This document shows, piece by piece, positions 4,401-6,383 of a DNA stretch of 60,744 nucleotides (positions within the stretch are counted from its first letter, which is position 1; each line of letters starts with the position of its first letter). Source of the stretch: a virus (Duplodnaviria > Heunggongvirae > Uroviricota > Caudoviricetes); the IMG/VR virus record IMGVR_UViG_3300005337_000004, positions 1 through 60,744 of that record. The stretch is one strand, 5' to 3'. The notes beneath the pieces are model-generated. The model was not told the origin of the DNA, did no database searches, and saw only the letters and a program-made list of their open reading frames with translations. A program made the position numbers and the translations under genes.

Positions 4401-4651
4401 GTCTGCTCCGGTGGGATGGTGATGACGGCACGCGCGCACGCCTGGTAGATCGCGTCGCGCAGGTCGTCGAGCATGTTGTCGTCAAGGGCGTAGCCGCGGA
4501 GCTCGGGGTAGTCCTGGACGAGGTCTGCGGCGGCGCGGGTGGTGCTGATGGTCTGAGCCTGGTACTGAAGCAGGTCGACGGCGATGCGGTTGACGAGTTC
4601 TGGGCTGGGTTCCCAGGCGCGGTACAGGCCGTCAAGGCGGCGGGTGGGCAT
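4397..4651 (-). CDS. hypothetical protein
   Basis: 84-aa ORF in coupled operon. Confidence 0.65.
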   Translation of the reverse strand: MPTRRLDGLYRAWEPSPELVNRIAVDLLQYQAQTISTTRAAADLVQDYPELRGYALDDNMLDDLRDAIYQACARAVITIPPEQT

Positions 4652-4654
4652 GGC

Positions 4655-5236
4655 CTAGCCCTCCTTCGAATTGACGTTTTCGCTGGATGCTGTCGTGCGT
4701 GCTGGCCTGCCTCCGCCAGCGCCTTGTCCTGGGCGCCCTGCTGCCCACGCCAGGATCTTGTCGTCGCTGGTGACGAACCAGTACGAGACGTTCCCGAGGT
4801 GTCCGTCGGGCTCGGGGAACGGGTGGTTGGCGTAGCGGCCTCCGGGGGCTGATACGGCGCGGTAGTGACGGATGGTGGCGGTTTTAACGCCCAACATGAC
4901 AGCCACGTCGGCCATGGTCATTTCCCCAGCCTCGTAGGCGTGATCGGGAATCGGCGCCATTACGGACGCTGGACGTCGCTTTTTGGGTACTGCACGCGGA
5001 CGATATCGGACGATGTTGTGGAGCGGGTGTTCCGTTCGTATGGCGCGGATCTCCGCCAGAAGCGCGGCCGATCGGGACTCATACCACTCGATCACGCGCA
5101 TGACGACCTGCGACGCCCACGGCTTGTTACCAACGTGCTGGCGCCAACGAACCGTCGGGTCCTGGCTTATGCCAACGTACAGCAGGCTTTCATCGTCATC
5201 GAAGAGCCGGTAGAGCGCAGTTCTCTCAGCTGCCAT
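4655..5236 (-). CDS. GIY-YIG nuclease-domain protein fused to C-terminal HTH
   Basis: ALYRLF..LLYVGIS..P..RWRQH and E..AIRTEHPLHN; C-terminal MADVAVMLGVKTATIRHY. Confidence 0.8.
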   Translation of the reverse strand: MAAERTALYRLFDDDESLLYVGISQDPTVRWRQHVGNKPWASQVVMRVIEWYESRSAALLAEIRAIRTEHPLHNIVRYRPRAVPKKRRPASVMAPIPDHAYEAGEMTMADVAVMLGVKTATIRHYRAVSAPGGRYANHPFPEPDGHLGNVSYWFVTSDDKILAWAAGRPGQGAGGGRPARTTASSENVNSKEG

Positions 5237-5486
5237 CGGCCGGCTCGCTCTCCCGCCTGGCAGAGGTCGCAGGCTTAAGGTGCGCGTAGCTGGGGTGCGG
5301 AGGAAGGTTGTGCTTGCGCCGTAGCGCTCTTACATGGCTGTCGGAGACGCCGATCGCGGCAGCAACTTCGGCGGGCCCGATTCCGGCCTCTAGTGCCGCC
5401 ACGATGGCCGGCTCGGTTTCGGCTGCTGCGCGCTCACGGAGCCGTTTGACGTGGTGGAGCTTGGCGAGTGCTTCTTCACGGTCCAT
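5226..5486 (-). CDS. small HTH DNA-binding protein
   Basis: AALEAGIGPAEVAAAIGVSDSHVRALRRK. Confidence 0.75.
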   Translation of the reverse strand: MDREEALAKLHHVKRLRERAAAETEPAIVAALEAGIGPAEVAAAIGVSDSHVRALRRKHNLPPHPSYAHLKPATSARRESEPADGS

Positions 5487-5542
5487 ACCTCGATGATACC
5501 TGTTGCCACTTCCGGAATCCATCCCCGGAACCCTCTTGCGGA

Positions 5543-5562
5543 AGTAGCTTCCGGAAGCTACT
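5543..5562. promoter_or_regulatory. 20-bp perfect palindrome, putative operator in divergent intergenic region
   Basis: AGTAGCTTCCGGAAGCTACT; second TTCCGGAA core at 5510; seven GGAAG/CTTCC pentamers in 5509-5602. Confidence 0.65.
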
Positions 5563-5608
5563 GTTAGAGATGTCAGGAAGCAGGAAGCAACCGAGGGGGA
5601 AGCTCGAA

Positions 5609-5854
5609 ATGACCACCATCGCCAAGCAGGTCAACATCCGGACCGCCGACCGCACCGCCCCGCTGGCCCTGCTGGTCATCCAGGCCAAGTTCGCGGCCAT
5701 CGCCGAGGTCGAGGCCGACGAGTTCCACACCTGCCCGATGTGCGGCCACGCCACCGCCGAGTTGTTCACCCGCATCGACAACCGCGACGACGCGGAGATC
5801 GAAATCTGCGAGGACTGCGCGGACACGCAGGACGTCTCCCATGTCGCCGACTGA
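5609..5854 (+). CDS. Zn-finger hypothetical protein
   Basis: CPMC...CEDC; purine-rich RBS upstream. Confidence 0.7.
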   Translation: MTTIAKQVNIRTADRTAPLALLVIQAKFAAIAEVEADEFHTCPMCGHATAELFTRIDNRDDAEIEICEDCADTQDVSHVAD

Positions 5855-5911
5855 CCCCAAGGCCGAAACGCCTTCGGGCGTCGAGCGGTGGGACCGCTCC
5901 TGACGATGGCC
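5855..5911 (+). ncRNA. Type II hammerhead ribozyme, predicted cleavage after GUC at 5882
   Basis: GGCC-GAAA-CGCC(UUCG)GGCG-UC-GAGCGG(UGGGA)CCGCUC-CUGACGA-U-GGCC; 5' CCCA can pair with loop I UGGG. Confidence 0.9.
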
Positions 5912-5936
5912 GTCAGCAATCCAGTAGGGGGATCCG

Positions 5937-6383
5937 ATGTTCCAGGGCTACCTGCGCAAGGGCCAGAACCGCCCCGCCCTCACCGGCCGCACGCTCCGTC
6001 GCCACGAGCAGCGCGCCCAGGCCCGCACCGAGCAGCGCCCCGGACGTCCCGTCATCAACCACCGCGACCGCGCCATCGTCGCCGCCCGCAACACCAACGC
6101 CGGCCTGATGACCGTCGGCGAGTACCTGCACGGCATCGGATTCCCCGAGGCGAACCTGTACGCGTCGGCTTTCGGCCGGGCATGCGCCAAGACCTACCGC
6201 GCCAACCACGGCACCGAGCCCCAGCGCATCTACGCCGCCGTCAACGGGCGGATCCGCCGCAGCCAGTTCGGTTACGCCGACGTCGCTGACTTGCTGGCCG
6301 GCGCCTACGTCTACAGCCGCACCGCCGAGTTCCTGGCCGCCGAGCAGAACACCGCCGACGTGCGCGCCCTCGTCAACGCCTGA
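5937..6383 (+). CDS. hypothetical phage protein
   Basis: 148-aa ORF with C-rich codon usage and AGGGGG RBS. Confidence 0.75.
   Translation: MFQGYLRKGQNRPALTGRTLRRHEQRAQARTEQRPGRPVINHRDRAIVAARNTNAGLMTVGEYLHGIGFPEANLYASAFGRACAKTYRANHGTEPQRIYAAVNGRIRRSQFGYADVADLLAGAYVYSRTAEFLAAEQNTADVRALVNA

Follow-up and report, generated by a model that had tools for sequence, protein, structure and literature searches.

The 51 nucleotides (nt) at positions 5861–5911 of a 60,744-nt stretch of tailed-phage DNA (hereafter the window; positions 1 to 60,744 of IMG/VR virus record IMGVR_UViG_3300005337_000004) constitute a genuine, selected type II hammerhead ribozyme. The element lies in the spacer between two same-strand phage cistrons, the standard intercistronic position for such elements, belongs to a common subclass with a short stem I that is invisible to Rfam, and, judging from its sequence and conservation, is probably a working ribozyme. 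Hammerheads have been described in phages since 2011, and the window element is a new example, not a new kind of element; it adds a well-supported type II hammerhead that Rfam does not see to a large, temperate-type phage lineage whose hosts are probably actinomycetes. Its main interest lies in a natural comparison within this lineage (ribozyme, hairpin, or shifted ribozyme), and in a possible third partner of the ribozyme's 3' tail, one that contains a stop codon.

The source genome is an IMG/VR virus record of 124,744 base pairs (bp), with terminal repeats and rated 100% complete, from an uncultivated, high-GC phage. Sequence numbering refers to the window unless marked as that of the genome or of a homologous locus (L-number).

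Anatomy of the element

An initial annotation had read a complete hammerhead out of this spacer, and on re-reading positions 5700–6060 every element that it listed was found where it had been placed, base for base. Within 5861–5911 these elements follow the type II permutation, with stems I and III capped by loops, and stem II open to the flanks. Read 5' to 3' on the plus strand, to which all features in this section belong, the 3' strand of stem II (GGCC, 5861–5864, positions 11.4–11.1) is followed by the core bases G12, A13 and A14 (5865–5867), and pairs with the stem II 5' strand (GGCC, 5908–5911, positions 10.1–10.4). Stem III (5868–5881) is a hairpin of five pairs in total, the A15.1–U16.1 pair (A5868–U5881) and four G–C pairs, closed by a UUCG loop (5873–5876), and the GUC triplet (5880–5882) ends in C5882, which is position 17. 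Cleavage is predicted after C5882 (5882/5883), its position following from the hammerhead consensus, with chemistry as in PMC8782182. Stem I (5883–5899) is a 6-bp hairpin (5883–5888 with 5894–5899) with the loop UGGGA, the first base of which is U5889, and leads into the core sequence CUGACGA (C3 U4 G5 A6 C7 G8 A9, 5900–5906). A single extra U (5907) separates A9 from G10.1, the same insertion being common in relatives.

The flanks carry further complementarity. The spacer CCCAA (5856–5860) holds both CCCA, a proposed pseudoknot arm, and A5860, the conserved A directly 5' of stem II. It is preceded by the 5' flank CUGAC (5851–5855), which includes the stop codon of the upstream gene, and which is complementary to the 3' tail GUCAG (5912–5916), such that the two could extend stem II as a distal helix, IIb; the tail is also complementary to the core CUGAC (5900–5904). 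The functional unit is probably 5851–5916. The gene boundaries were likewise as annotated, with the upstream TGA stop at 5852–5854 and the next ATG at 5937, 25 nt past 5911.

Type II hammerheads are defined by C3 U4 G5 A6 N7 G8 A9, G12 A13 A14, the pair A15.1–U16.1 and H17 (Perreault et al. 2011, PMC3088659), and this invariant core is present in the window as CUGACGA at 5900–5906, GAA at 5865–5867, A5868–U5881 and C5882. The core-adjacent Watson–Crick pairs G5908–C5864, G5883–C5899 and A5868–U5881 are also in place, yet one U (5907) is inserted. For the minimal 51-nt element, the minimum free energy (MFE) fold is the hammerhead fold.

Conservation and covariation

Homologous loci were found through the contigs encoding the 148-amino-acid (aa) protein of the downstream cistron, together with one viral and one metagenome pattern scan. 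The ribozyme is kept in nine related loci (L131, L132/133, L137, L138, L140, L141, L166, L171 and L173), as well as in the cousins L142 and L153. Five of the ten metagenome pattern matches, representing three sequences (L165/L174, L169 and L170/L172), have no stem I pairing and were rejected as chance matches, their number being about that expected.

The resulting alignment (A2) comprises 10 sequences, and the structure tested on it comprises 20 pairs, from the three stems and the proposed pseudoknot. All 13 core bases are invariant, including GAA (5865–5867) and CUGACGA (5900–5906), while 98.5% of cells are paired over the whole tested structure (100% in stem I, 98% in stem III). Five pairs of stems I and III, three of them in stem I, have changed on both sides, and one further both-sided change falls in the proposed pseudoknot helix. 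Compensation in stem I is exemplified by the series GAGCGG/CCGCUC, GCGAGG/CCUCGC and GCGCAG/CUGCGC, and stem III has gained a paired C–G insertion in some relatives; the sequence of stem II is invariant within the window's lineage. None of 500 shuffles of A2 reached the observed pairing and covariation of the 20-pair structure, and slid controls were approximately 40% paired. The 148-aa protein shows 73–94% identity among loci in which the ribozyme core is invariant. Conservation of the core in homologous loci had been named in advance as a test of the annotation, and in the ten sequences the core does not vary while the stems change by compensation; this is the pattern expected of a selected ribozyme.

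Chance occurrence was assessed with a relaxed type II descriptor, specifying CUGANGA, GAAA, a stem II of at least three pairs with 0–1 inserted base, a stem III of at least three pairs, U–H, and a stem I of at least four pairs. On both strands of the 124,744-bp genome, the window site is the sole match, with a stem II of 4 bp, a stem III of 5 bp and a stem I of 6–7 bp. Across 300 first-order (dinucleotide) Markov genomes of equal size there were nine relaxed matches in total, none with stems as long as those observed.

A short-stem-I subclass in other phages

The element is not confined to this lineage. A recurrence pattern consisting of the window's stem III and CUGANGA, of which stems I and II form no part, was found in more than 120 IMG/VR contigs, nearly all of which form stems I and II too; approximately 0.2 chance matches would be expected, assuming about 1e11 bases in IMG/VR, a rough assumption of our own. 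The matches fall into two groups. In the long-loop group, the stem I region spans 22–25 nt, stem II has 3 bp, and loop I forms a pseudoknot with the 3' tail, an arrangement that is the published type II consensus (PMC3088659); the best complementary run of these two segments averages 4.13, compared with 2.80 for permuted partners. In the short-stem-I group, to which the window element belongs, the stem I hairpin is 17 nt long and stem II has 4 bp, and neither flank gives a pseudoknot signal (observed versus permuted runs of 2.50 and 2.48 for the 5' flank, and 2.38 and 2.30 for the 3' tail). Stem II is 4 bp long in 63 of 69 short-stem-I members, and across the subclass its sequence varies while pairing is kept.

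The extra base after A9, which the initial annotation had described as a known natural variant, does recur in nature: a U is present there in 23/118 short-stem-I and 22/95 long-loop hammerheads in the phage loci that were fetched. Its presence in 45 of 213 natural relatives suggests a variant that the family tolerates rather than a defect. De la Pena and Flores reportedly found in 2001 that an extra U at the A9/G10.1 position is tolerated. In the close relative L132 it is missing.

Several of the phage loci hold more than one copy. L035 (4.2 kb) and L066 (7.0 kb) contain dense arrays of seven Rfam-scoring type II hammerheads each, and L154, L159 and L161 have four short-stem-I copies each, in consecutive spacers.

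Position and proposed function

Of 121 relatives, more than 90% have a long open reading frame (ORF) on the same strand whose end is no more than a few bases from stem II (median gap 1 nt); downstream, a median of 24–26 nt separates the ribozyme from the next ORF. In the window the corresponding distances are 6 nt before and 25 nt after. This geometry of stop codon, ribozyme and ribosome-binding site (RBS), shared by more than 100 relatives, fits the idea put forward in the initial annotation that the element cuts a polycistronic mRNA, itself a published hypothesis for phage hammerheads (PMC3088659, PMC6765202). Such elements are proposed to process long phage transcripts into gene-length mRNAs, although their function is still termed undefined (PMC3088659, PMC6765202). 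Phage and prophage hammerheads that flank genes cleave in vitro and in vivo (PMC3088659), and cleavage inside Desulfovibrio cells has been shown for type II hammerheads located near phage genes (PMC8782182).

Applied to the window, the mechanism would proceed as follows. Upon transcription of the operon, stems III and I would fold as local hairpins, and the 4-bp stem II would close the three-way junction. By analogy with the hammerhead family, the RNA would then cut itself between C5882 and G5883 by internal transesterification. The upstream product, the message of an 81-aa zinc-ribbon protein, would end one base past stem III with a 2',3'-cyclic phosphate on C5882, while the downstream product, encoding the 148-aa protein and the genes that follow, would begin with a 5'-OH at G5883, directly on stem I, and have a 54-nt leader with an RBS. 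From one transcript there would thus arise mRNAs that are stable, or translated, independently of each other, in line with the general proposal for hammerheads of phages and prophages.

Rfam score and tertiary contacts

Several observations weigh against a working hammerhead. The element scores under the gathering threshold of the Rfam Hammerhead_II model (RF02276); it lacks the type II consensus pseudoknot, in which loop I and the 3' tail form at least 4 bp, its loop UGGGA making at most 3 bp with the tail; once the flanks are added, computation ranks non-hammerhead folds as more stable; RNAalifold, run on the lineage, prefers a hairpin between tail and core to stem II; and several close relatives are without the ribozyme.

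The first of these reflects the scope of the model. An Infernal scan had been suggested as a check, and gave a divided answer: RF02276 aligned to 5861–5918 end to end (E = 8.5e-4 in a 211-nt search), but at 27.2 bits, below the 37-bit gathering score. Among 17 short-stem-I loci scored in the same way (L009, L021, L025, L028, L031, L037, L038, L041, L043, L050, L058, L064, L065, L067, L077, L078 and L079), 0 of 18 hammerheads reached the gathering score, and an E-value search of 12 of these loci returned two RF02276 matches only, of 28–29 bits, whereas 15 long-loop loci gave 25 matches above threshold. Since all 18 subclass members miss the threshold and long-loop members pass it, the sub-threshold score of the window element is a matter of model scope, not a defect; the RF02276 model is built on long-loop members with the pseudoknot. 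The short-stem-I subclass, lying under the Rfam threshold, thus represents a practical annotation gap, as its members are invisible to standard annotation.

At gathering scores, Rfam scans found no family in the window or elsewhere in the genome, and neither these scans nor the relaxed descriptor revealed a second hammerhead in the genome. An RF02276 search of the phage's own genome returned four weak sites, the window copy not among them; the best, at genome positions 65520–65565 on the minus strand (18.1 bits), was rejected, being without the CUGANGA...GAAA core.

As regards the missing pseudoknot, the consensus pairing of loop I with the 3' tail occurs in the majority, not all, of type II hammerheads (PMC3088659). 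A different pseudoknot had been proposed for the window, between CCCA (5856–5859) and UGGG of loop I (5889–5892), and this proposal was not significantly supported: the two segments are complementary, but their conservation is not significant, with 39 of 500 shuffles equalling it. In the lineage, 38 of 40 cells are paired (95%), three flank changes lead to wobble pairs, and one change is compensatory (L153). The pairing is contradicted by a second hammerhead in L142, which has the same 5' flank with a non-complementary loop, and by L163 compared with L147, in which the loop has changed without a compensating change in the flank. On these alignments, the CCCA/UGGG pseudoknot is possible but unsupported.

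A contact of another type appears more likely. In the short-stem-I group there is an A directly 5' of stem II in 56/60 members, a purine (R) directly 3' of it in 51/60, and a U at the first position of loop I in 46/47; the counterparts in the window are A5860, G5912 and U5889. Most natural hammerheads possess a loop–loop motif, UNmYN / RNnA, with a U–A reverse Hoogsteen pair (PMC2632901), and because the A, R and U conserved in the subclass match this motif, a contact between the U of loop 1 and the A of loop 2 can be inferred. In the window, a tertiary contact of this type, involving U5889, A5860 and G5912, is therefore more likely than a Watson–Crick pseudoknot.

Competing folds and possible regulation

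The computed folds raise a different possibility. Pairing of the tail GUCAG with the core CUGAC amounts to 6 bp when G5905–C5911 is counted, and the single-sequence MFE fold with flanks uses this tail/core hairpin. The computed energies are −24.2 kcal/mol for the active hammerhead, −25.6 kcal/mol for the form masked by the tail/core hairpin, and −28.7 kcal/mol for the active form with the flank/tail helix. With computation favouring the competing folds, the RNA may adopt its active fold only transiently or under regulation. A further fold specific to the window (−34.6 kcal/mol), formed by pairing of the 5' flank with the stem III 3' strand, was treated as incidental, being absent from the lineage consensus and requiring bases of the stem III loop that vary freely.

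These energies permit an elaboration of the best explanation rather than a replacement for it: a bistable or regulated hammerhead, in which the tail (5912–5916) either masks the core CUGAC(G) or, with the 5' flank CUGAC, clamps stem II. A ribosome terminating at the UGA codon (5852–5854), or refolding after cleavage, would shift the balance, so that cleavage would be tied to upstream-gene translation, or be rendered irreversible once it has occurred. We regard this as possible but doubtful. In its favour, besides the energies and the tail/core hairpin of the lineage RNAalifold consensus, a NUCAG tail is enriched in the short-stem-I group (55/118, versus 7/95 in the long-loop group and a background of 8.6%), and its first base covaries with core base N7 (C with G 36 to 1; U with A 15, plus two G–U), which at the level of clusters gives seven Watson–Crick combinations, one wobble and one mismatch. 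Within the high-GC lineage of the window, moreover, the 5' CUGAC keeps the same spacing across four or more distinct upstream gene ends. Against this, the tail is missing from half of the subclass, while in the window's lineage tail, core and flank are all invariant and offer no covariation for the flank/tail helix; CUGAC may simply be a stop codon in a GC-rich context, and the energies leave out tertiary contacts and kinetics.

In its fullest form, the idea would be a three-way switch, in which the tail picks either the core (masked, inactive) or the stop-codon-bearing flank (clamped, active), and the terminating ribosome decides whether the mRNA is cut. Such a switch is unlikely, though if true it would be a natural case of translation-coupled control of a self-cleaving ribozyme in a phage. 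In any event, the conserved complementarity of tail and core makes regulation of the subclass ribozymes testable.

Relatives without the ribozyme

Because several close relatives do without it, the ribozyme is dispensable for the gene cluster. The sole IMG/VR relative of the upstream protein, L005 (92% nt identity), has no ribozyme and a different downstream gene, and its similarity to the window ends exactly at the spacer. In ribozyme-less relatives, the same spacer holds a near-perfect hairpin of 12–15 bp directly after the stop codon, lacking a U-tract (L134:2906–2960, for L134/135; L136:2902–2945; L139:1358–1410; and L141:4764–4810, in a second, homologous spacer). The stand-in hairpin may be a functional substitute, as a terminator or a stabiliser of the 3' end; with either solution, a stable hairpin would stand at the 3' end of the upstream message, this being stem III where the ribozyme is present.

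L141, a 133.8-kb phage, has both. At 4425–4504 it carries a 66-nt ribozyme unit, 88% identical and including the CUGACCCCAA and GUCAG flanks, which lies one gene further upstream, before the zinc-ribbon gene, and the position of the window's spacer is there occupied by the hairpin. The upstream genes, or their ends, differ among carriers of the ribozyme. The ribozyme thus sits at mosaic junctions, for which either differential loss from an ancestral array or recombinational movement would be an explanation. The lineage offers a natural comparison for the fate of mRNA: depending on the genome, the spacer holds the ribozyme or a long hairpin, or the ribozyme lies one gene further upstream.

These same observations, namely the abrupt end of similarity to L005 at the spacer despite a shared upstream gene, the displaced unit of L141, and the differing gene ends of the carriers, could be taken to mean that the 66-nt unit acts chiefly on the level of DNA, as a mobile or recombinogenic module boundary (a "linker"), with RNA activity secondary. 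This is decidedly unlikely, as RNA pairing and the catalytic core are visibly under selection, the distribution is accounted for just as well by differential loss from an ancestral array (arrays of four to seven hammerheads are found in other phages), and neither transposition machinery nor a target duplication lends it support.

The stand-in hairpins bear on the opposite reading as well, that the window element is an inactive relic or a plain structural element, one that does not usefully cleave because a U is inserted, because a pseudoknot is lacking or because other folds compete, and that the spacer merely provides stable hairpins, for example as a factor-independent terminator or 3'-end stabiliser. 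The presence of a 12–15-bp hairpin at this place in L134, L136, L139 and the second spacer of L141, and the greater computed stability of the competing folds, are in keeping with such a role. A plain hairpin, however, would need no invariant core bases, and is disfavoured for this reason: the 13 non-helical core bases have stayed invariant while the neighbouring protein diverged (73–94%) and the stems compensated. With the extra U also frequent in natural relatives (45/213), a relic is highly improbable.

Finally, that the ribozyme and the phage's RNA-repair enzymes (T4-type polynucleotide kinase-phosphatase (Pnkp), 624–1592; Rnl1; and a Thg1-like protein) form a system that heals or seals the ribozyme's ends is scarcely credible and is not adopted here because, although Pnkp lies approximately 4.3 kb from the ribozyme, L132 and L138 have Pnkp, Rnl1 or Thg1 genes beside the ribozyme operon, and a 2',3'-cyclic phosphate and a 5'-OH are established substrates of these enzymes, no Pnkp, Rnl1 or Thg1 homologue was found in 1.22 Mb of flanking sequence from 143 other phage loci with hammerheads, the co-location is limited to one phage lineage with the genes on the opposite strand, and the enzymes have a known target in tRNA repair.

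Relation to known hammerheads

The genuine, selected hammerhead described here resembles the RF02276 type II hammerheads of bacteria, prophages and phage metagenomes (PMC3088659) in its core, its circular permutation and its intergenic, sense-strand habitat between small phage genes, as well as in the proposed role of cutting long phage transcripts. It departs from the RF02276 consensus in being without the loop I/3' tail pseudoknot, in the shortness of its stem I hairpin (17 nt), in the 4 bp of its stem II, and in the U inserted after A9.

The HHphage hammerheads of haloviruses HF1 and HF2 (PMC3088659) also lie a few nt upstream of a start codon in a polycistronic phage transcript, and there a transcript 5' end has been mapped to within 3 nt of the cleavage site (PMC3088659). 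HHphage, however, has core insertions, is salt-adapted and belongs to an archaeal virus, whereas the window element has a canonical core but for the extra U, and its phage probably has an actinomycete as host. The triple hammerheads flanking ardA in Agrobacterium tumefaciens and the type II hammerheads of Desulfovibrio vulgaris likewise lie on either side of small phage-type genes, with cleavage demonstrated both in vitro and in cells (PMC3088659; PMC8782182). In contrast to these, the window holds the single copy of the whole genome and no array, and its neighbouring genes are unrelated, the upstream one showing a weak Lar-like hint.

Among viroids, the CChMVd (+) hammerhead is reported (De la Pena and Flores 2001) to have an extra residue between A9 and G10.1, the core position at which the window has its extra U. 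With the hammerheads of the UNmYN / RNnA type (PMC2632901) the window element shares a U as the first base of loop 1, and A/R where loop 2 would close. Those viroid ribozymes are type III, with a closed loop 2, whereas the "loop 2" of the window is open, or closed by the possible distal CUGAC/GUCAG helix.

Genomic setting

The ribozyme follows the first gene of a short plus-strand cluster, from which a small minus-strand ORF diverges. The initial annotation had placed it in an early operon; a sense-strand position in an intercistronic spacer is borne out, but the "early" timing is not supported. A scan for sigma-70 promoters found none, and a terminator scan gave background levels.

The upstream cistron (5609–5854, plus strand) encodes the 81-aa CxxC...CxxC zinc-ribbon protein. 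The longest version of this ORF starts at GTG 5468, but the likely true start is ATG 5609, which stands behind GAGGGGG. Homologues of 82–91 aa are encoded in L131, L132 and L141, the counterpart in L005 shows 86% aa identity, and there is a weak, sub-threshold match to the Lar (restriction-alleviation) family, at 21.4 bits versus a cut-off of 39.6.

The downstream cistron (5937–6383, plus strand) starts at ATG 5937, behind a Shine–Dalgarno-like GGGGGA (5927–5932, plus strand) that is conserved in relatives, and encodes the 148-aa, arginine-rich protein. A large protein search found 66 homologues; these relatives came from that search only, a pattern scan of IMG/VR having given none. Family searches of Pfam, PHROG and NCBIfam returned none for this protein, and its AlphaFold model (pLDDT 80) had no PDB match at E ≤ 0.001, its matches being to unnamed AFDB clusters only. 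Among GenBank phages, neither flanking gene was matched at the protein level, and no nucleotide match, near or distant, was found.

The minus-strand ORF (5229–5522) has sub-threshold helix-turn-helix (HTH) matches. Between it and the ribozyme operon, at 5543–5562, lies a perfect 20-bp palindrome, AGTAGCTTCCGGAAGCTACT, beside which region 5505–5591 contains several more copies of CTTCCGGAA/GGAAGC. This arrangement looks like an operator/promoter region, and as an HTH-like ORF diverges from the operon with the palindrome in between, the ribozyme operon is plausibly under repressor control.

Of the more distant features, the T4-type Pnkp gene (624–1592) was identified by its match to PHROG 505 (E = 1.4e-86). 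Outside the window, ARAGORN called a tRNA-Ala(CGC) at L126:9583–9659 (genome approximately 70282–70358, minus strand), a stretch in which the Rfam gathering scan lists no tRNA; the call is probably a false positive or a degenerate tRNA-like element. The operon is adjoined by a gene resembling GIY-YIG homing endonucleases (4655–5233, minus strand), the position of which is taken in L138 by an HNH/NUMOD4 endonuclease (L138:383–1282, minus strand), and this therefore looks like a swap of selfish endonucleases.

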